From an uncultured Gammaproteobacteria bacterium (lineage in GTDB: Bacteria; Patescibacteriota; Patescibacteriia; UBA9934; CAZDDW01), in assembly GCA_965231015.1 (NCBI GenBank), contig OZ246408.1, positions 280,158 to 344,157 of the forward strand: a stretch of DNA of 64,000 nucleotides, read 5' to 3'. Position 1 is the stretch's first letter. Every line of letters starts with the position of its first letter. The translations under genes were made by a program, and so were the position numbers. Of this stretch, positions 30,465-41,871 are shown one piece after another. The notes under the pieces were generated by a model. That model was not told where the DNA came from. It saw nothing but the letters and a program-made list of their open reading frames with translations, and made no database searches.

Positions 30465-30502
30465 ACCCCAACAGCGAACGTAGCTCGCGGTCGGGGTTAT
30501 TG
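30465..30502. terminator. Hairpin between convergent queA and the 30497-31288 ORF
   Basis: AACCCC ... GGGGTT stem with a structured loop, followed by ATTGAGTTTT. Confidence 0.35.
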
Positions 30503-31288
30503 AGTTTTGGCTCCCTCAGGGATGTCGTCGAGGAAATCGGTTTCTTCAAGATCTTCTGCGTCCTCTTCGGACAATTCCTCCCAGACAATGAATGATTCAT
30601 CGATTACTTCCAGATCCTCTTCTGCCGGTTCGTCGGGTTTGTCTGGTTTTGGCCGTCTGGCAGGTGAGCTAAGGTCAGTGACAGTGTCTTCAGTTGGTTC
30701 GTCTCCCATGTCATCATCTAAGCTTGAGTGCACTGGCGGAGCCGAGGTCATGTTGGGAGCACGTTCAGCCAGTGGGGTACGCAAGTGGTCAAACACGAGC
30801 TTCAGAGTTCGCTCACTGCAACCAAGAGCCGCATACTCTGTGGCACGCCGCAGGCTTGTGTCGTTGTTTTCTCGGAGCAGTCGTTCGATGGCTCGGTCCA
30901 TTTCCGGCCAACAGTCCATGTTCTCGATTTGCTGGGTTGTTCCACCCAAGGCCTCAATAGCCGCTTCTGCTTCCTGAGGGCTATGGCTTTCACGGAGGGA
31001 CAATTTAAGTAGCCGTTTGATCGCCTCCCATTGGCGCTCTCCCAAAAAACTATGCATTCCAAGCGCTTCGGTGATTTCGCCCTGTCGGGCCAGGCTTCTG
31101 GCACGACTGGACATGTGTTGAGTTCGTGCCGGAGAAAGTGAAAGAGTATTGAAGCGAGCGATCAAGTAATCCCACTCTTCTTGATCGCCGTATAAGACTG
31201 ATAGACTGTCAGCGATCTGCTGCCACAGCCTAATGCGCAGATCAGTTCGCCGCATGCCTTGCTTACCCCTGTTTAGGTTAATTACCAA
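30497..31288 (-). CDS. Hypothetical protein with an acidic disordered C-terminus (263 aa)
   Basis: ORF at about 55% GC. No recognisable motifs. Confidence 0.5.
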   Translation of the reverse strand: MVINLNRGKQGMRRTDLRIRLWQQIADSLSVLYGDQEEWDYLIARFNTLSLSPARTQHMSSRARSLARQGEITEALGMHSFLGERQWEAIKRLLKLSLRESHSPQEAEAAIEALGGTTQQIENMDCWPEMDRAIERLLRENNDTSLRRATEYAALGCSERTLKLVFDHLRTPLAERAPNMTSAPPVHSSLDDDMGDEPTEDTVTDLSSPARRPKPDKPDEPAEEDLEVIDESFIVWEELSEEDAEDLEETDFLDDIPEGAKTQ

Positions 31289-36274: not shown

Positions 36275-37537
36275 ATGTCATGTAAAATTGAAACTATTCA
36301 CGCTCATGAAATTTTAGATTCTCGTGGAAATCCGACCTTGTCAGTTGCTGTACTTTTAGAAAATGGTACAACCGGACACGCCATGGTACCATCCGGAGCC
36401 TCCACCGGGGTTCACGAGGCTTTGGAATTACGTGACAAAGACAAGAATCGTTATCACGGTAAGGGTGTTTTGAAGGCTGCCAAGAACGTGAATACAAAAA
36501 TTAATAAACATATTCGCGGCATGCGCGTGACTGAACAAATGAAGATTGATGAGGCCATGATTATGCTGGACGGTACTTTAAATAAAAGCAGGCTTGGGGC
36601 AAATGCTATTCTTGGAGTTTCTTTAGCATGCGCTCATGCAGGAGCTCGGCATAAACGAAAGCCGCTTTATGAATATTTGCGTTGGGTTTATGACATAAAA
36701 CACAAAACTTACAAGATGCCGCTTCCGACCATGAATGTGATGAACGGGGGAGCCCATGCCGGATGGATACTTGACTTTCAAGAGTTCATGATTGTGCCAC
36801 AACAGAAGAAATTCAGTGAACGGGTTCGGTGTGGTTCAGAAATTTTTCACACCCTTGGCAAGCTGCTTAAACAAAAAGGCTTTTCAACGCTCAAGGGTGA
36901 CGAAGGGGGGTATGCCGTGCCGCTTCCAAAGAACGAAGATGCACTCAAAGTGATGTCGCAAGCTGTGAAAAAGGCCGGTTACAAACTCGGCACAGATGTA
37001 GCTTTTGCCATGGATCCGGCGACCAGTGAGTTTTATGATAAAAAGACCAAGAAATATAATCTAAAGGTAGAAGATAAAACGCTAACCTCGAGTCAGATGG
37101 TTAAGCTTTTTGAAACTTGGGTGAAAAAGTATCCGATCATTTCTATTGAGGACGGTTTAGATCAAGATGATTGGACCGGGTGGCAGGAGCTTACTAAGAA
37201 GCTTGGTAAAAAGATTGCTCTGGTTGGCGATGACTTATTTGTGACTAATGTTGATCGCTTACAAAATGGAATCGATGAAAAAGTGGGAAACGCAATTTTG
37301 ATCAAAGTCAATCAAATTGGGACTCTTACCGAAGCCGTGCAAGCAATACGTTTGGCACAAATGAATGGTTATCAGATTTCTGTTTCTCACCGTTCAGGTG
37401 AAACATCAGACACTACAATTGCAGATCTTGCTGTGGCGGTTAATGCCGAGTACATAAAATCCGGGTCCTTATCTAGATCCGAACGCTTGGCAAAATATAA
37501 TCGTTTAATGGAAATTGAAGAGGAGGTAAAAGGGTAG
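36275..37537 (+). CDS. eno: Enolase
   Basis: [11 protein letters not shown]-terminus, SHRSGETED-type catalytic motif ([10 protein letters not shown]). Confidence 0.9.
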
Positions 37538-37562: not shown

Positions 37563-37600
37563 CCGGCCATTGACAAATGGCCGGATTTGTTTTAAATTAA
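37563..37600 (+). terminator. Strong intrinsic terminator after eno
   Basis: TCCGGCCATT gaca AATGGCCGGA 10-bp stem followed by TTTGTTTT. Confidence 0.6.
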
Positions 37601-37750
37601 GCCTCCAGTGAGGTTGAATAGGTCAACCTTGTACCGTGCGCGGCGGTAACCGCGCCAGGCCCGTTTGGCGGGCCGAGTTTCTGTCCCAGGGTTACCAAAG
37701 CGCTGGCCGTCAGGCTGTCGCAAGGATCCCCAAGGATGGAGGGTTTTGGA

Positions 37751-38464
37751 ATGTCAGATTTGTTCAACGTGGGCCACGCGGCCCAACTGCATGAGATACA
37801 GAAGGCGCGCTTGGCGCGCAACGAGCCCGGGATCGGGCCGGAGGTGGAGGAGCTCATCCGGCGCTTGACCTCGGGCGGCGTGGCCGGCAAGGTCGTGGAT
37901 GACATCCGGCTGATCCAGGCCAAGCGGTTCTTCGACCGCGGCTTCGGCCGCGAGCTTGGCCTCAAGGACTTCGCGGCCTACCTCGCGACCATCCCGACCG
38001 TGCCCGAGACGCTCCTCGCGGACGACCCGAACTTCCCGCTCCTCGTCCTCGGCGAGCCCCGCCTCGGCCTTACTCGCGCTTGCGAGCTCATCGGCCTGCG
38101 CTACACGGGCAGCGACCAGACGCTAGTCCCGTTCGACAAGCGTCACGCCGAACCGACCAAGCCGTGGTGGTTCAGCATGCACGACGGCCGGCGCAACCGT
38201 AACCGCAAGCCGAGCGACTGCCGCACGAGCCTCGGTGCAAACGAGATCAGCGCCACGGCTTTGCGTGGAGTCTGCACCTTCCTGCACCACCCGGGCGTGA
38301 TCGTGCAGGGGGAACACTGTGTGGATCTGCCCGGCTCGGTCGACGCCGAGTACCGCGGCTACAACGCCGACCTCGGCATTTGGCGCGACGAGCCGAGGCT
38401 CTACAGAAGCATGAGCGGTTTCGCCGACCTGGACTACGGTTCGGCCTCCTGCCGGGAGTGCTGA
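37751..38464 (+). CDS. DGR target (variable) protein, GC-rich, no signal peptide. The C-terminal approximately 40 aa are encoded by the VR.
   Basis: About 62% GC ORF with RBS GGAGGG. Its 3' 122 bp align to the TR with mismatches confined to TR adenines. Confidence 0.7.
   Translation: MSDLFNVGHAAQLHEIQKARLARNEPGIGPEVEELIRRLTSGGVAGKVVDDIRLIQAKRFFDRGFGRELGLKDFAAYLATIPTVPETLLADDPNFPLLVLGEPRLGLTRACELIGLRYTGSDQTLVPFDKRHAEPTKPWWFSMHDGRRNRNRKPSDCRTSLGANEISATALRGVCTFLHHPGVIVQGEHCVDLPGSVDAEYRGYNADLGIWRDEPRLYRSMSGFADLDYGSASCREC
38338..38459 (+). repeat. DGR variable repeat (VR), 3' end of the target gene
   Basis: 122-bp alignment to 38781-38902. About 27 differences, essentially all at positions where the TR has A (for example TR AAC/AAG/AAC against VR GAC/GAG/CGC). 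The 3' 25 bp are identical, consistent with an IMH-like anchor. Confidence 0.75.
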
Positions 38465-38492
38465 ATCTCGATCCTGGTTCTCTTGTATCTTT

Positions 38493-38533
38493 CCGCCCCC
38501 AAGGCTAACCTCGGGGGCGGTATCTTTTTTCTT
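38493..38533 (+). terminator. Intrinsic terminator after the target gene
   Basis: CCGCCCCC aaggctaacct CGGGGGCGG followed by TATCTTTTTTCTT. Confidence 0.6.
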
Positions 38534-38780
38534 AAAACTTTGTTCAAATTTATTTGAAAGTAGGGTAATGAATTGCAGATTAAGGTTCGCAGTCCCCGAA
38601 ATCCTCGAAAGAGTTATCGCCAGAGTCATGTATTTTACGGAATACATGGGCGCGCGATTCGGACGAGTCACTCCTTGCTGAATTCTAGCGGGGATATGCC
38701 CCGGAATGAAATACAACAGCAACCTTCCCGGTGAAAGAAGCTGTGGTGAATGCGGGTGAGATTCAGCAATAAGTGAGGGC

Positions 38781-38902
38781 GGTCAACGCCAAGTACCGCG
38801 ACGACTGCGCCTACCTCAACATTTGGAACGACGAGCCGAAGCTCAACAGCAACAGGAACGACAACGCCAACCCGAACTACGGTTCGGCCTCCTGCCGGGA
38901 GT
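38781..38902 (+). repeat. DGR template repeat (TR), non-coding and adenine/AAC-rich
   Basis: Read in the VR frame it gives VNAKYRDDCAYLNIWNDEPKLNSNRNDNANPNYGSASCRE with many AAC codons. No ORF covers it. Confidence 0.75.
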
Positions 38903-38914
38903 AACTTGATCCGG

Positions 38915-38944
38915 AAAACGCTCCAAACAAGGGCGTTTTTTTAA
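38915..38944. terminator. Bidirectional intrinsic terminator between the TR and the 3' end of avd
   Basis: AAAACGC(T)CC aaacaa GGGCGTTTT, with A/T tracts on both sides. Confidence 0.5.
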
Positions 38945-39289
38945 CTATAATGACCGTTGCCAGCCGCCAAGCATTTGGCCGATTTTCTGCAGCCGTTCTT
39001 CAAAGTCAAGATATTGTTTTTCGGTTATGATCTTGATTTCGAAAGCCAGACGAAATAGCACTTTAAGGAGGTTATTTTTCAGAATAGCCTGTTTGATCGG
39101 CGCGATTTTGAACTCGCGCTTGGCGTTTCCGGCTTCGATGATTGAGACGAGCATATTTAGCACGGTTTCCTCGATCTTGCTGCCCAAGGTGTATTTTTCA
39201 GCCTTAGGGAATTTGGCGCGGATGAGATGAAAATCCTTGAGCAGGTCGAACGCCAGCTGAAAGACTGGCGCTTCATTGATTGAATACAT
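38945..39289 (-). CDS. avd: Avd-like accessory variability determinant (four-helix-bundle / 23S rRNA IVS protein family)
   Basis: 114 aa, helical. FPKAEKYTLGSKIEETVLNMLVSIIEAGN ... GGWQRSL matches the family pattern (FPK.E.Y.L..Q..R...SI..NIAEG ... GGW). Its start codon abuts the RT start on the opposite strand (CAT|ATG). Confidence 0.6.
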   Translation of the reverse strand: MYSINEAPVFQLAFDLLKDFHLIRAKFPKAEKYTLGSKIEETVLNMLVSIIEAGNAKREFKIAPIKQAILKNNLLKVLFRLAFEIKIITEKQYLDFEERLQKIGQMLGGWQRSL

Positions 39290-40279
39290 ATGTTTGAACA
39301 GATTATTTCTTCAGAGAATATGTTTTCCGCTTGGCGCGAATTCCGCCGCGGCAAGAGGGGGCGAAGAGACGTTGCCGAGTTTGAGTGTAGCCTTGAAGAT
39401 AACATCTTTGCTTTGCGTGAAGATTTGGCGAGTGGTCGGTACAAGCACGGGCCGTATCAGCGGTTCCATATTTTTGATCCCAAGCACCGCATTATTCATA
39501 AAGCCAGTGTGCGCGATCGGCTGGTGCACCATGCAGTTTATCGAGTCCTGTATCCTATCTTTGAACAATCTTTCATTTACGACAGTTATTCCTGTAGGAT
39601 CGGTAAAGGTACACATGCAGCTGTGAGCAGACTTCAGACCTTTGTTCGTAAAGTAAGCAAGAACTACACTAGTCCGTGTTGGGCCTTGAAGTTCGATATC
39701 AAAAAGTTCTTTGATTCCGTTGATCATAATATTTTGCTCAATGTGCTTAAACAAAAAATCTCCTGCCCTAAGACAAACCGTCTGTTGGCGGAGATCGTGA
39801 ACAGTTACTTAAGTTCAAATTCCGTTGGGGGGGGGGCGATACTTAGAACCATTCGCGCGAAAGGTCTACCGATAGGAAACCTAACTTCTCAATTATTTGC
39901 CAATGTTTATTTAAATGCATTTGACCATTTTATCAAAGAAACAGTCAGAACCAAGTATTGTCTAAGATACACTGATGACGCTCTTATCATCCACCAAGAT
40001 CCCCAATACCTCAAACTCCTCATCCCCTTCATCCAACACTGGCTTTGGCAAGAGAGAAGATTATGCTTGCACCCAAATAAAACCTCTGTCCGAAAATTAT
40101 CTCAAGGTATTGATTTCTTAGGTTATGTCACTATGCCACACTATAGAGTATTAAGGACTAAAACAAAAAGACGGATGTTAAACATTATTTGTGAGGATAA
40201 TTTGGTGTCGTATGCTGGCCTTCTCAAGCATTGCTCGGGGCATGAATTGATCAAGACAATTTATGGTATAATATCGTAG
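39290..40279 (+). CDS. Diversity-generating-retroelement reverse transcriptase
   Basis: N-terminus MFEQIISSENMFSAWREFRRGKRGR. RT motifs FIYDSYSCRIGKGTHAA, LPIGNLTSQLFANVYLN (DGR-specific SQ variant), the catalytic RYTDDALI box and QGIDFLGY. Confidence 0.85.
   Translation: MFEQIISSENMFSAWREFRRGKRGRRDVAEFECSLEDNIFALREDLASGRYKHGPYQRFHIFDPKHRIIHKASVRDRLVHHAVYRVLYPIFEQSFIYDSYSCRIGKGTHAAVSRLQTFVRKVSKNYTSPCWALKFDIKKFFDSVDHNILLNVLKQKISCPKTNRLLAEIVNSYLSSNSVGGGAILRTIRAKGLPIGNLTSQLFANVYLNAFDHFIKETVRTKYCLRYTDDALIIHQDPQYLKLLIPFIQHWLWQERRLCLHPNKTSVRKLSQGIDFLGYVTMPHYRVLRTKTKRRMLNIICEDNLVSYAGLLKHCSGHELIKTIYGIIS
39827..39836 (+). repeat. G10 homopolymer inside the RT ORF (encodes VGGGA)
   Basis: ccgttGGGGGGGGGGcgat, counted directly. 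Confidence 0.6.
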
Positions 40280-40281
40280 TT

Positions 40282-41871
40282 ATGAATATGGAAAACGAAC
40301 GTCCAAAACCAGTTGTGCTTTGTGTGGTAGATGGTTTTGGAGTTGCTCCGCCAAGTGACGGTAATGCTATAACCCGGGCCAATGCTCCAAACCTTCTCCG
40401 TTTTGTTCAGCACTACCCGGTTTTGACTCTTCGAGCGTCCGGAGAAGAGGTTGGTTTAAGTTGGGGTGAAATGGGAAATTCAGAGGTTGGGCATCTGGCG
40501 ATTGGAGCAGGGCGAGTTTATTATCAAACACTTCCGCGAATAAATAAGGAAATCGAAACAGGGGCTTTTTTTGAAAATGAAAAGTTATTACATGCAATCG
40601 AGTATGCGAAAAATAGTGGTGGAGCCCTGCACTTAGTTGGTTTAGTCAGTGAAGGCGGGATTCACTCCATGGATAAACACTGTTATGCCTTGTTAGAGAT
40701 GGCCGCACAACACAAATTAAAAAATGTGTATGTCCACGCCATTCTTGATGGTCGAGATACTTTGTATAACGCGGGGGTTGATTTTATTTCGAATTTACAA
40801 GAAAAAATTAAGGAGCTTAAAGTCGGACAGATAGCAACATTAGCCGGACGGTATTGGGCTATGGATCGTGATAAGCGTTGGGACAGAACGGAAAAAGCTT
40901 ATCAGGCTATGGTTTATGGTGAGGCTGATGAAAAGTGTGAGGACCCGATCGAAGCCATTAAGGCATCTTACGAAAATGAGGTGTATGACGAACAACTGGT
41001 TCCCACTGTTATCACTCAAAAAGGTGAACCGGTTGCTACTGTCACGAATGGAGATGCGGTTATCTTTTTCAATTTTCGCCCAGACCGAGCTCGTCAATTG
41101 ACCAAGGCTTTTGTCCTCCCGACTTTTGATAAGTTTGAACGTGGGTACATGAAGGACTTGGAATTTGTGACCATGACCGAGTATGAATCCGGCTTACCGG
41201 TTGAGGTGGCCTATCCACCGGTGGTACTAAACAACACTTTGGCGGAAGTGGTTTCAGAAGCTGGTTTAACCCAATTGCATATTGCTGAAACAGAAAAGTA
41301 TGCCCACATAACCTTTTTTATGAACGGTACCCGAGAGGATCCTTTTCTTGGTGAGGAACGGGTAATTATTCCGTCGCCCAGGGTATCCAGTTATGATGAA
41401 ACACCGGCTATGAGCTCTAAAGAGTTGACTGATAGGGTAGTAAAAGAAATAAAGGCAGACAAGTTTGATCTTGTGATTATGAACTTTGCTAATCCGGACA
41501 TGGTTGGTCACACCGGAAATTTACAGGCGACTATTAATGCGGTTGAAGCAGTTGATGAACAAGTGGGTCGAATTGCCGAGGCGGTGCTAGCTAAAGACGG
41601 GGTAATGTTTATCACGGCTGACCACGGAAACGCAGAGGAGCTTTTGAATGTTTCAACCGGAGAAATGAGCAAGGAACACTCCACAAATCCAGTTCCGCTT
41701 TATGTTATTGGTCGGCAGTTTGAAGGCACGAGTTCGCCAGCCGGTGAGGTTCCAGGTGGGGATTTATCATTATTACCCCCGATAGGAATGTTGGCTGATA
41801 TTGCCCCGACCGTCCTTAAAGTTATGAACTTACCGCAACCAGAAGAAATGACGGGGCAACCGTTAATATAA
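40282..41871 (+). CDS. gpmI: 2,3-bisphosphoglycerate-independent phosphoglycerate mutase
   Basis: VVLCVVDGFG ... SEVGHL N-terminus, C-terminal metal-binding ADHGNAE. Confidence 0.9.
   Translation: MNMENERPKPVVLCVVDGFGVAPPSDGNAITRANAPNLLRFVQHYPVLTLRASGEEVGLSWGEMGNSEVGHLAIGAGRVYYQTLPRINKEIETGAFFENEKLLHAIEYAKNSGGALHLVGLVSEGGIHSMDKHCYALLEMAAQHKLKNVYVHAILDGRDTLYNAGVDFISNLQEKIKELKVGQIATLAGRYWAMDRDKRWDRTEKAYQAMVYGEADEKCEDPIEAIKASYENEVYDEQLVPTVITQKGEPVATVTNGDAVIFFNFRPDRARQLTKAFVLPTFDKFERGYMKDLEFVTMTEYESGLPVEVAYPPVVLNNTLAEVVSEAGLTQLHIAETEKYAHITFFMNGTREDPFLGEERVIIPSPRVSSYDETPAMSSKELTDRVVKEIKADKFDLVIMNFANPDMVGHTGNLQATINAVEAVDEQVGRIAEAVLAKDGVMFITADHGNAEELLNVSTGEMSKEHSTNPVPLYVIGRQFEGTSSPAGEVPGGDLSLLPPIGMLADIAPTVLKVMNLPQPEEMTGQPLI

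Follow-up and report, generated by a model that had tools for sequence, protein, structure and literature searches.

A complete diversity-generating retroelement of a Patescibacteria chromosome with a conserved folded RNA domain on the 5′ side of its template repeat

Between eno (upstream) and gpmI (downstream), the analysed stretch of 64,000 nucleotides (hereafter the window) carries a genuine, complete diversity-generating retroelement (DGR) of a type frequently found in ultra-small (CPR) bacteria. It is a cellular element located on the chromosome, its host belongs to the Patescibacteria, and all protein parts of the DGR are intact. Genes and repeats follow one another as target gene with variable repeat (VR), template repeat (TR), avd on the reverse strand, and reverse transcriptase (RT). 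This is the order TR-(avd)-RT with reverse-strand avd of architecture B3, to which 90% of CPR DGRs belong (Wu et al. 2018, PMC5758913). A preliminary description, made from the sequence, had already proposed a complete DGR inserted at this place. We arrive at the same conclusion from the RT, whose best solved relative is bRT, from a bAvd match, from the adenine bias of the VR/TR mismatches and from the location of the VR on a C-type-lectin fold. The features of the locus are as follows.

37751-38464, plus strand: target (variable protein) gene, 237 aa; N-terminal helical region, then a C-type-lectin-fold domain with the VR
38337-38459, plus strand: VR, the last ~41 codons of the target gene (start 38337/8)
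38455-38460, plus strand: VR junction site GGAGTG (IMH-like), a perfect Watson-Crick complement of CACUCC, straddling the end of VR/TR homology
38493-38520: GC-rich hairpin followed by a T-run, downstream of the VR
38541-38549, plus strand: promoter-like extended -10 box (TGT-TCAAAT), a consensus match 6 nt upstream of the conserved 5′ end of the RNA
38556-38777, plus strand: conserved structured 5′ domain of the DGR RNA, 222 nt, with P1, P2, the primer-like strand and P3 with P3a and P3b
38563-38597, plus strand: helix P1 of this domain
38617-38657, plus strand: helix P2 of this domain
38661-38674, plus strand: strand a, the proposed primer strand, ending in CACUCC (38669-38674) immediately 5′ of P3
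38675-38769, plus strand: P3 domain, in which helix P3 encloses P3a, GGAAUGAAAUACA, P3b and GGUGAAUGCGGGUGAG
38675-38686 with 38758-38769, plus strand: paired arms of the long-range helix P3
38689-38703, plus strand: hairpin P3a, inside P3
38703-38715, plus strand: conserved single strand GGAAUGAAAUACA, between P3a and P3b
38716-38744, plus strand: hairpin P3b, inside P3
38780-38902, plus strand: TR, non-coding (start 38780/1), with 34 adenines, mostly in AAC/AAG-type triplets
38898-38911, plus strand: strand a′, the TR 3′ end (GGAGU) plus a TR-specific flank (AACUUGAUC), IMH*-like, with a conserved mismatch at position 6
38915-38946: hairpin with U7 right after the TR, predicted fold -15.5 kcal/mol
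38945-39289, minus strand: avd, 114 aa (PF22296 bAvd), start codon abutting the RT start
39290-40279, plus strand: DGR RT, 329 aa, intact, with IGNLTSQ and YTDD (Pfam RVT_1)
39827-39836, plus strand: G10 homopolymer within the RT reading frame, coding for VGGGA

The RT has the position and the IGNLTSQ and YTDD motifs given in the preliminary description, and its proposed assignment to the DGR lineage holds. Its best PDB match is 8ub7 (Bordetella bRT; E 1.3e-49, residues 2-318), compared with E 3e-19 for group II RTs and 3e-17 for retron-type RTs. In the alignment to 8ub7, IGNLTSQLFANVY pairs with IGSLTSQLFANVY and YTDD with YMDD, so that both signatures of the lineage ([I/L]GxxxSQ and YxDD) are present. 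The RTs of two related loci (L008 and L011) are 64% identical to it over the full length. The G10 tract is the only run of G or C of at least 7 in the 64 kb (~0.04 expected); at the equivalent position L011 has G10 and L008 G8, and 11 more distant RTs have none. It could possibly serve as a slipped-strand on/off switch for the RT. The neighboring gene, predicted to be Avd-like, encodes the accessory protein Avd, with 63.1 bits to Pfam PF22296 bAvd (cutoff 40) and 34.3 bits to PF05635 (cutoff 33.8); its best match, the NCBIfam model DivGenRetAVD, scores 69 bits, below the cutoff of 80. It lies on the minus strand with its start adjoining that of the RT as CAT|ATG, as described. This inversion had been called unusual, but it is the published B3 architecture and is present in nearly all of ~60 related loci.

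The target reading frame is borne out (an alternative ATG lies at 37736). The protein has no sequence-level match to any Pfam or PDB entry, and its best homolog is 56-58% identical. A check of the fold of its C-terminus places the VR, at the 3′ end of the coding sequence, on a C-type-lectin scaffold like that of Mtd and TvpA, with the variable codons changing at positions 1 and 2. In agreement with the claim that a signal peptide and transmembrane segment are absent, no hydrophobic segment was found. The suggested intracellular location is plausible given this result and the existence of fusions in which the module follows an MFS transporter at its C-terminus or is joined to a Ser/Thr kinase. 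The target is a small, probably cytoplasmic C-type-lectin-fold protein. The hairpin at 38493-38520 is probably the terminator of the target gene, and may possibly form a cruciform like the Bordetella stem-loop downstream of IMH; relatives that lack a hairpin downstream of the VR have phased CTTG/TTGG repeats in its place.

VR and TR align without gaps at an offset of 443, as first described, and no second VR was found within the 64 kb, also as described. The nature of the mismatches required correction. A recount gives 24 in 122 nt rather than ~27, and instead of falling almost exclusively at TR adenines, 16 are at adenines and 8 at other bases. The bias is nonetheless strong (16/34 adenines versus 8/88 other positions, Fisher p = 9e-6), and 22 of the 24 mismatches change the first or second base of a codon. 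Over its last 27 nt the TR is identical to the VR, after which the two diverge (VR GGAGTG|CTGA, TR GGAGTA|ACTT), forming an IMH-type junction that separates the recipient VR from the donor TR. Because 8 of the 24 mismatches are at non-adenines, the present VR cannot be the direct product of the present TR. Drift after the most recent homing event, an RT of low fidelity or a different TR as the source of the VR would each be compatible with these differences, and their number is inside the range reported for CPR DGRs, in which up to 11 non-A-to-N differences occur, frequently in elements considered functional (PMC5758913). The VR is identical in two assemblies. In close relatives the VRs have diversified: identical TRs are accompanied by different VRs in different samples (L021/L024/L029 and L030/L031/L033).

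The cassette had been described as GC-rich. This is correct for ~37600-38525, which includes the target gene (GC 0.66-0.67, GC3 0.89), and for the TR (0.60, with triplet-periodic GC), but not for the cassette as a whole, since the leader (0.47), avd (GC3 0.58) and the RT (GC3 0.45) resemble the host (GC3 0.39-0.44). The target gene is thus compositionally foreign. Among the alternatives to the reading that we develop below, the one that survives best is that the locus is a recent mosaic, in which a GC-rich target and VR with the matching TR from a high-GC CPR lineage were joined to a resident RNA-avd-RT module. The non-adenine mismatches would then reflect a VR written by the TR of the donor. 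Beyond the contrast in composition between target and TR on one side and RT and host on the other, the same GC discordance recurs in ~9 of 22 cassettes, with at least four unrelated target families and in both directions (L058), and target genes change faster than RT lineages (PMC5758913). In the first cluster of mismatches, the TR keeps the family scaffold (DCAYL; NCAYL in L011), and the VR, with YNADL, departs from it as though its source had been a TR having AAC codons at these places. However, we know of no close donor, the best homolog being as distant as noted above, and a single crossover would not produce the alternation of GC-rich, host-like, GC-rich and host-like segments. The RT reading frame stops 2 nt short of the start of gpmI, a spacing that points to long residence of the RT module. 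We regard a recent mosaic as rather unlikely, although it is compatible with our preferred reading and with the other alternatives.

The preliminary description had supposed that the TR is transcribed separately from the RT, from an upstream region with a promoter-like segment to a bidirectional terminator. The promoter-like box stands, but the conserved structured RNA between the box and the TR was overlooked. A -10-like hexamer is found 6-7 nt upstream of this element in 17 of 29 loci, often as TATAAT or TATACT with an upstream TG. At the other end, the interval between the TR and the avd stop codon measures only 42 nt and folds into the hairpin with its U-run, a bidirectional terminator, as proposed, that the convergent avd gene has in common with the TR. 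Hairpins occur at the same place after the TR in nearly all related loci, and together with the -10-like box they support the idea of a separate transcript. As far as conserved sequence features can indicate, the template belongs to a dedicated RNA unit of ~390 nt consisting of the promoter-like box, the 222-nt domain, the TR and the hairpin/U-run. We infer the ends of this RNA, the priming site and activity at the locus. Of 278 Avd-containing DGRs, 207 are reported to have stem-loops directly after the TR (Handa et al., bioRxiv 10.1101/2023.10.23.563531), and the hairpin at 38915-38946 is a candidate equivalent of this Avd-binding stem-loop.

The new result of the analysis is the conserved folded RNA domain on the 5′ side of the TR. 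RNAalifold predicted 44 pairs, 35 of them compensatory. The covariance-model alignment, itself fitted to the model, has 94.1% of its cells paired, compared with 44-52% when slid, and 42 of 44 pairs show double changes. The corresponding covariance model (R1) matches the domain here with 199 bits (E 1.6e-52), among the best of its 36 matches and the only one in the window. These 36 matches occur one per DGR locus and always immediately 5′ of the TR, including loci with minus-strand TRs (L042/L043); as a negative control, 14 viral DGR loci gave no match to R1. Within the domain, helix P3 has compensatory changes in 11 of 12 pairs (96% of cells paired), and VR/TR homology starts 0-10 nt after its 3′ arm in 19 of 20 loci. 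By analogy with Bordetella, we propose that the P3 domain is a cDNA-stop helix with an RT-binding core. Descriptions of CPR B3 DGRs (PMC5758913, PMC8144416) mention neither a conserved folded RNA on the 5′ side of the TR nor base pairing of such an RNA with TR flank and VR junction, and an earlier description elsewhere is possible.

Immediately 5′ of P3, strand a pairs with 38898-38911 with probabilities of 0.87-0.99 in a single-sequence ensemble based on thermodynamics alone. Across loci, with the register set using the VR site, 79.6% of a/a′ positions are paired, compared with 38-49% when slid, and 11 of 13 pairs are compensatory; none of 500 shuffles and none of 2000 permutations was as good. 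Beyond the hexamer, strand a pairs with the TR flank at 6.86 of 10 positions, with the VR flank at 3.76 and with permuted partners at 4.72 (0/2000). Because strand a pairs with the 3′ end and flank of the TR and the adjoining P3 abuts its 5′ end, the TR becomes a ~118-nt bulge between the two helices in the predicted fold. The predicted first templated base is G38897.

The hexamer CACUCC is near-invariant, and its ACT is the only set of invariant columns in the leader. It is complementary to the VR junction at 6 of 6 positions in 15 of 22 loci (mean 5.50 versus 4.12 for mismatched leaders, 0/2000 permutations), and in 18 of 22 loci the VR complements the hexamer better than the TR does. A G precedes the junction site in 19 of 19 VRs. 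The fit is poor in three loci (L048, L050 and L026), and in some TRs (L003, L008) no more than 3-5 nt pair with the hexamer.

Taken together, these observations are best explained, with somewhat more confidence than doubt, by a CPR B3 DGR that diversifies a lectin-fold protein and whose TR RNA carries a primer-like helix a/a′ and a Stop-like helix P3 in circularly permuted order. Diversification would act on the ligand-binding face of the C-type-lectin fold. By analogy with the Bordetella bRT-Avd-RNA structure, a/a′ would be the template:primer duplex and P3 the 'Stop' duplex. The primer used by RT-Avd for cDNA would be the final C of CACUCC (38674), by its 2′-OH or, after a nick, by a 3′-OH, and the conserved G (38897) would be copied first. 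Copying would run 3′ to 5′ through the TR with misincorporation at adenines, and halt at P3. P3a, the A-rich single strand and P3b may correspond to the Bordetella stem-loop, A-minor/Thumb-Ring segment and RT-binding stem, equivalences that we infer from order and topology. Because CACUCC is fully complementary to GGAGTG and less so to GGAGUA, an RNA still joined to the cDNA would bridge the VR boundary by base pairing, which would give homing its direction. The same idea was put forward for IMH versus IMH* in Bordetella (Naorem et al. 2017, PMC5703328).

A second alternative is that the 222-nt RNA is an RT-Avd scaffold or a regulatory RNA and that a/a′ only closes the TR loop, with priming from the target DNA, the RNA 3′ end or another site. 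The hexamer is internal to an uninterrupted strand and lacks a free 3′ end, the 3′ end of the hexamer pairs with only 3 TR nucleotides in some loci, and the two Bordetella studies differ on priming by a 2′-OH or at a nick (bioRxiv 10.1101/2023.10.23.563531; PMC5703328). Moreover, hexamer and VR bottom strand share one sequence, and a nick in the target could therefore allow priming on the TR in this register. On the other hand, the topology follows Bordetella point for point (primer directly 5′ of the Stop strand, G as next base, TR homology after P3), and cDNA synthesis in Bordetella is independent of the target (PMC5703328). The VR site also tracks the hexamer and not the TR, as a lasting link between RNA and cDNA would predict. 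A role without priming appears unlikely to us.

The weakest alternative is a decaying or dormant DGR whose parts look intact but which has not homed for long, so that VR and TR diverged by ordinary mutation: the fraction of non-adenine mismatches (9% of such positions) is the highest among 23 related cassettes, most of which have none, neither TR nor VR retains the two Trp codons of the NWNWN scaffold that the TRs of L003, L008 and L011 conserve, the VR carries Leu in place of a Pro conserved in the family, and the G10 tract could switch the RT off by slippage, but the RT, Avd and high-scoring RNA scaffold are full-length, the hexamer complements the VR site perfectly, and the identical 27-nt end, the codon-position pattern, the adenine bias and the frequency of non-adenine differences in functional CPR DGRs make this quite improbable.

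A wider proposal, to which we give slightly less than even credence, is that CPR (B3-type) DGRs generally use a circularly permuted RNA. Primer strand, stop helix and RT-binding core would then lie in a separately transcribed 5′ domain, and providing them would be the function of the orphan RT-16-like motif. The hexamer carried by the cDNA would read or even rewrite the 6-nt VR junction, so that an RNA-encoded sequence would set the direction and the 3′ boundary of homing. CPR DGRs are the largest and least understood group of DGRs, and the RNA domain suggests how the whole class may start and stop mutagenic copying.

The closest known systems are the CPR-type B3 DGRs (PMC5758913), whose counterpart in Roux et al. 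2021 (PMC8144416) is DGR clade 2, a clade confined to Patescibacteria. They share with this locus gene order and orientation, a Patescibacteria host, a chromosomal location, multiple non-A-to-N differences and a target without a recognisable Pfam domain, and we found no difference in protein architecture. Among DGR variable proteins with a C-type-lectin fold are Mtd (1yu0), TvpA (2y3c) and the kinase-linked CLec targets of multicellular bacteria (PMC10907252). Compared with these, the target here is a stand-alone protein of 237 aa with no signal peptide or transmembrane segment and an N-terminal helical region.

The closest catalogued RNA is the orphan Rfam motif RT-16 (RF03019), found near RT genes; its description (Weinberg et al. 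2017, PMC5737381) gives it neither a function nor a connection to DGRs, and links RT-10 alone to the Bordetella DGR. The full-length RT-16 model aligns to 38617-38775 with an identical order of elements, namely a hairpin, CUAC, the 5′ arm of a long helix, an inner hairpin, AUAAAAUaCA, a second inner hairpin, GGUg and the 3′ arm of the long helix; RT-16 lacks P1. The match in the window (25.9 bits, E 0.04-0.09) is below the gathering score of 50, which none of 20 related loci reaches. The 222-nt RNA is, to judge from this shared layout, probably a distant relative of RT-16 and not a member as currently defined.

In the Bordetella BPP-1 DGR, the RNA consists of the 3′ segment of avd, the TR and Sp. 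The primer strand Sp53-56 is directly followed by the Stop-duplex strand, the first templated nucleotide is TR G117, and after the Stop strand come a stem-loop, adenosines, the single-stranded Thumb Ring and a bRT-binding stem (bioRxiv 10.1101/2023.10.23.563531, PDB 8ub7). The RNA here has no sequence similarity to it, but resembles it in having a template:primer-type duplex at the TR 3′ end beside a second duplex abutting the TR 5′ end, G as first template base, a stem-loop just downstream of the TR, and, after the Stop strand, a short stem-loop, an A-rich single strand and a stem. In both, the primer strand complements the VR junction more than the TR's own copy. The hexamer ends at 38674 and P3 starts at 38675, which places the proposed primer strand directly 5′ of the Stop-like strand, as in the functional core of Bordetella; both a/a′ and P3 covary. 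The layout differs. In Bordetella the 140-nt Sp on the 3′ side of the TR holds these elements, no more than 20 nt upstream of the TR are required, and the transcript is avd-TR-brt. Here the proposed primer strand, Stop strand and RT-binding elements are 5′ of the TR, with the TR-pairing strand ~225 nt upstream and only a hairpin on the 3′ side, and the RNA appears to be separate, ending before the inverted avd.

Re-examination of the region bore out the ORF and repeat coordinates of the diversity-generating retroelement (DGR) that a preliminary description had placed between eno and gpmI. The genes of the locus and its flanks, in window coordinates, are:

36275-37537, enolase, upstream flanking gene
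37751-38464, + strand, target ORF, 237 aa (alternative ATG at 37736)
38945-39289, - strand, accessory gene avd, 114 aa
39290-40279, + strand, reverse transcriptase (RT) ORF, 329 aa
40282-41871, gpmI, downstream flanking gene

A PDB search with the RT returned the Bordetella phage DGR RT (bRT, 8ub7) as the closest solved structure, with an E-value of 1.3e-49 over residues 2-318; the values for group II intron RTs (3e-19) and retron-type RTs (3e-17) are far weaker. The motifs IGNLTSQLFANVY and YTDD align to those of bRT, and the enzyme is of the DGR type rather than a group II or retron RT, as proposed. It is full-length and intact when compared with two relatives of 64% identity. The public gene call begins 10 codons downstream of the ATG at 39290; we favour this ATG as the start because residues 1-10 are conserved with bRT and with L008 (numbers of this form denote related loci fetched for comparison). 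The proposed Avd identity of the 114-aa protein is confirmed by Pfam bAvd (63 bits against a threshold of 40), and the top NCBIfam match is DivGenRetAVD. PDB sequence searches with the target and Avd gave nothing useful, and Pfam and NCBIfam returned no match for the target either. The target family comprises 87 clusters at 90% identity, all from Patescibacteria where named, and 652 representatives at 50% identity, and its C-terminal ~45 residues are hypervariable. In two related proteins (P0088, 1007 aa; P0140, 800 aa) the module forms the C-terminal part of a fusion, with a Ser/Thr protein kinase (two module copies) and with an MFS transporter, which hints at ligand sensing at the cytoplasmic side.

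Only 2 nt separate the RT stop codon from the start of gpmI (40277-40284), and the divergent avd/RT junction has zero length. The RT is therefore probably co-transcribed with gpmI, with its promoter necessarily inside avd, and this tight packing favours a long residence of the RT module. The RT ORF also contains a G10 homopolymer (39827-39836), the sole G or C run of at least 7 in the 64 kb (~0.04 expected). It is kept as G10 in L011 (~4540) and as G8 in L008 (~4477), the loci of the two closest RTs, is absent from 11 more distant RTs, and sits in an insertion relative to bRT. The tract may switch the RT on and off by slipped-strand phase variation, or it may be prone to sequencing error.

The comparison set consisted of 66 metagenomic loci that carry the RT lineage and 9 genomic loci that carry the target family. 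Among the RT relatives, avd is almost always inverted and immediately upstream of the RT, with a template repeat (TR) 20-77 nt past the avd stop and a variable repeat (VR) 415-570 nt upstream of the TR. The opposite-strand avd, initially regarded as unusual, is thus a trait of the clade, published as architecture B3, 'TR-(avd)-RT', where parentheses denote the reverse strand (Wu et al. 2018, PMC5758913). A cellular DGR clade confined to Patescibacteria has been described (Roux et al. 2021, PMC8144416), and RTs from IMG/VR are only 32-34% identical. We regard it as practically certain that the element is a genuine and complete CPR B3-type DGR; as a DGR, and apart from the RNA model developed below, it is an ordinary member of an already-known class. 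Siblings from separate samples (L021/L024/L029 and L030/L031/L033) carry identical TRs and VRs that differ at TR-adenine positions, so the clade is active in nature.

Some loci depart from this layout. The RNA element and TR are on the strand opposite the RT in L042 and L043, and in L036 the TR precedes the RT by 18 nt and avd does not intervene; all keep the structured RNA domain directly 5' of the TR. Within 6 kb of the target homologs in L001 (6001-6747), L002, L004, L006 and L007, the RT, avd, TR and RNA element are all absent; the homologs of L001 and L002 end in the junction motif GGAGTG and that of L006 in GAAGTT. A DGR located elsewhere in the genome may diversify these orphans in trans, or they may be relics.

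The VR (38337/8-38459, the last 122-123 nt of the target ORF) aligns gap-free with the non-coding TR (38780/1-38902), 443 nt downstream. It is, as first noted, the only VR in the window: a further copy of the repeat is absent from the 64 kb even with TR adenines masked. A recount gave 24 mismatches, not the ~27 claimed, and these do not fall almost exclusively at adenines, as 16 of 34 A positions and 8 of 88 non-A positions differ (38803, 38806, 38807, 38812, 38850, 38855, 38862 and 38873). The adenine bias itself is strong (Fisher p = 9e-6). Substitutions at TR adenines are 12 A>G, 3 A>T and 1 A>C, and codon position 1 or 2 holds 22 of the 24 mismatches.

Activity of this copy is favoured by its intact proteins, an RNA among the best-scoring copies, a perfect match between VR and leader hexamer, 27 nt of VR/TR identity at the 3' end and the adenine bias. 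Against it, the eight non-A differences are the highest fraction among 23 cassettes. The NWNWN tryptophans of related TRs are missing from both the TR and the VR of the window, and Leu replaces a conserved Pro in the VR. Where the mismatches first cluster, the TR encodes the family scaffold, DCAYL (NCAYL in L011), and the VR encodes the deviant YNADL, as if written from a TR with AAC codons there. From this pattern and the non-A differences we infer that the present VR is not a direct product of the present TR. It may have been inherited from another TR, which agrees with the compositional mosaic of the locus; drift since the last homing event and low RT fidelity are also possible. TR self-mutagenesis is a poor explanation, since at the first cluster it is the VR that deviates while the TR matches the L011 scaffold, and most of the non-A mismatches would stay unexplained. 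In one sibling pair (L067 643-760 and L068 2555-2672) the TRs themselves are not identical: at three positions an A in one faces G, G and T in the other. The TR may have mutagenised itself, or assembly from a heterogeneous population may have joined VR and TR into a chimera.

The locus had been called a GC-rich cassette, which holds for the target region and TR and fails for the leader, avd and RT, which resemble the host. The GC-rich stretch (~37600-38525; GC 0.66, GC3 0.89) comprises the target gene, ~150 nt upstream of it and a terminator hairpin, and the TR has a GC of 0.60 with codon-like GC periodicity. Values are host-like at 38526-38779, the leader with the RNA domain (GC 0.47), and at 38945-40279, for avd (GC3 0.58) and RT (GC3 0.45); host genes have a GC3 of 0.39-0.44. 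About 9 of 22 cassettes share a GC discordance between target and module (L035, L039, L050, L053, L055, L058); they span at least four unrelated target families and include both directions, L058 being the reversed case (target 0.50, RT 0.69). GC-richness is not the trait of one target family, given GC3-rich targets in at least four unrelated families, a family member with a GC3 of 0.21 (L027) and the opposite pattern in L058. A3 is below T3 in all nine GC-rich targets and both are low, so a test for strand-specific adenine avoidance in the target gene does not discriminate. The recurrent mosaic suggests exchange of target/TR modules among CPR lineages. Separately, local GC reaches 0.54 at ~30500-31250, with a strongly negative AT skew (-0.26), against a background GC of 0.42-0.46.

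The most distinctive part of the element lies between the VR and TR. This spacer is nearly constant in length (280-450 nt), and when it was aligned across 23 loci the 3' ~225 nt were conserved, with visible compensatory changes and shared motifs (GAAAGUAGG, CCGAAAUC, CAGAGUC, CACUNC, GAAUAAAAUACA, GGUG and ACGGA). RNAalifold found one helix only in a 15-sequence MAFFT alignment; recovering the structure needed a well-aligned subgroup and realignment with a covariance model. The eight best-aligned members gave 44 pairs, 35 of them with compensatory changes (RNAalifold). The covariance model built from this alignment has 36 matches with E<=0.01 in 405 kb, one per DGR locus and always directly 5' of the TR on the TR strand, L042 and L043 included. 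It has no match in the orphan-target loci or in fourteen viral DGR loci. The window contains a single match (38556-38777, 199 bits), within which the following were delineated:

38563-38597, P1
38617-38657, P2
38669-38674, near-invariant hexamer CACUCC, ending an unpaired strand
38675-38686 with 38758-38769, helix P3, enclosing P3a, the conserved single strand GGAAUGAAAUACA, P3b and GGUG...GAG

Across the 36-member alignment, which was fitted to the model, 94.1% of cells are paired, a large margin over column shuffles (59.5%) and slid partners (44-52%). Double changes occur in 42 of 44 pairs, and the covariation score is 0.71 against 0.08-0.16. The RNA structure 5' of the TR is very probably real. 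The promoter-like box earlier noted upstream of the TR stands, and beyond it the region is a conserved, covarying RNA domain. Most relatives have a -10-like box, in many cases TGnTATAAT, whose distance upstream from the first G of the element is 6-7 nt (TGT-TCAAAT at 38541-38549 in the window). After almost all TRs a strong hairpin with a T-run comes within 10-20 nt, directly ahead of the stop codon of the convergent avd (38915-38946 in the window). Together these features support the earlier suggestion of a separately transcribed TR RNA and give its predicted ends.

The strand that ends in the hexamer (a) pairs with the TR 3' end and a TR-specific flank (a', 38898-38911). Outside the hexamer, pairing with the TR flank (6.86 of 10 positions) exceeds that with the VR flank (3.76) and with permuted leader/TR partners (4.72; 0/2000 permutations). 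An ungapped alignment of helix a/a' from 20 loci has 79.6% of cells paired, against 38-49% when slid, compensatory changes in 11 of 13 pairs and a covariation score of 0.51 against 0.13-0.16. ViennaRNA, given the window sequence alone, assigns probabilities of 0.87-0.99 to the a/a' pairs and ~0.75 to P3. VR/TR homology starts 0-10 nt (median 4) past the P3 3' arm in 19 of 20 loci, and the TR is thus predicted to be a bulge between two helices. A G stands immediately 5' of the paired site in 18/19 TRs and 19/19 VRs. One subclade (L017, L024, L030, L034, L050, L055, L075) has 'TTCT(G/A)G' after the TR junction copy; it belongs to strand a', and its conservation exceeds what pairing alone requires.

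The hexamer is also perfectly Watson-Crick complementary to the VR 3' junction in 15 of 22 loci, and matches at 5/6 positions in four more. Mean complementarity is 5.50, against 4.12 for leaders of other loci and 3.95 for shuffled hexamers (0/2000 each). The site always spans the end of VR/TR homology, and the two sides covary (CACUCC/GGAGTG, CACUAC/GTAGTG, CACUUC/GAAGTG, AACUCC/GGAGTT and UACUUG/CAAGTA). Because the reading frame differs among targets, the junction motif is a signal at the level of nucleotides. Complementarity is lower for the TR copy of the site (mean 4.32), with the VR better in 18 of the 22 loci, equal in 3 and worse in 1, and this copy is often degenerate (ATAGTT, ACAGTT, GAAATG, GTTATG, GGAACG) where the VR is perfect. 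When the hexamer is joined to a cDNA copy of the TR sequence that precedes the paired bases, the product is the exact VR antisense across the junction (by hand, for the window and L003); we therefore read the hexamer as a primer strand. It would stay on the cDNA and anneal to the VR boundary, with priming at C38674, G38897 as the first template base and synthesis stopping at helix P3. By analogy with Bordetella, we lean slightly towards these roles in priming, stopping and targeting.

On the target side, phased CTTG/TTGG repeats with ~7-8 nt spacing occur clade-wide in the 80 nt after the VR (L016, L017, L026, L035, L039, L055 and others; mean 3.96 vs 0.85 per 80 nt) and may be an alternative recognition or DNA-bending element. 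They are not a feature of the window locus, which has one, or of L011, which has none; a GC-rich hairpin is found there instead.

At gathering threshold, Rfam detected no RNA gene, tRNA included, in the whole 64 kb, and no RT motif in 20 related loci. The full RT-16 model (RF03019), run in E-value mode, matches 38617-38775 with 25.9 bits (gathering score 50; E 0.04-0.09), and the two layouts agree from P2 through to the 3' arm of P3. RT-1 to RT-19 are motifs found near RT genes, of which only RT-10, the Bordetella Sp region 3' of the TR, has been tied to a DGR, with the speculation that others serve other DGRs (Weinberg et al. 2017, PMC5737381). The literature searched, with incomplete coverage, describes for CPR DGRs neither a structured domain 5' of the TR nor a permuted DGR RNA nor a relation between hexamer and VR. 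The covarying RNA domain and the model of a circularly permuted DGR RNA with an RNA-encoded junction match thus appear to be previously undescribed.

DGRs reach their greatest abundance in the 'nano' microbes of the CPR and DPANN and, to our knowledge, their mechanism is known only from the Bordetella phage element, in which the RNA elements are 3' of the template. A search for Bordetella-type elements in other taxa covered only 40 nt upstream and 100 nt downstream of TRs (bioRxiv 10.1101/2023.10.23.563531), so a 222-nt 5' domain was invisible to it. In the Bordetella bRT-Avd-RNA complex, Sp53-56 and TR118-121 form the template:primer duplex, with A56 as primer and TR G117 as the first templated base. 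Two nucleotides further, the 'cPRT Stop' duplex, at which the cDNA ends, joins Sp59-70 to the stretch directly upstream of the TR. Onward lie a short stem-loop, adenosines in A-minor contacts, the single-stranded 'Thumb Ring' and a stem that binds bRT; a stem-loop that binds Avd is found just downstream of the TR (bioRxiv 10.1101/2023.10.23.563531).

The CPR RNA has the same two-helix junction and, after the Stop strand, the same order of elements: P3a, an A-rich conserved single strand and P3b. The difference is in chain connection. In the CPR RNA internal elements close the Stop helix, which leaves the free ends 5' of the primer strand and 3' of the TR flank, whereas in Bordetella Sp1-52 closes the primer duplex and the free ends fall upstream of the TR and at the end of Sp. 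The CPR connection is a circular permutation of the Bordetella RNA, and from this topology we infer, by analogy, the functions given to its individual elements. If true, the permuted RNA model explains how B3 works with avd inverted directly after the TR, since permutation would allow function with only ~40 nt between them. It would also give a function to an orphan Rfam-type motif, make precise and testable predictions for priming, first template base and stop, and define a compact stand-alone 'dgrRNA' unit, possibly useful for engineered targeted mutagenesis. Finally, it would support RNA-to-target pairing as what sets homing direction in a lineage far from Bordetella.
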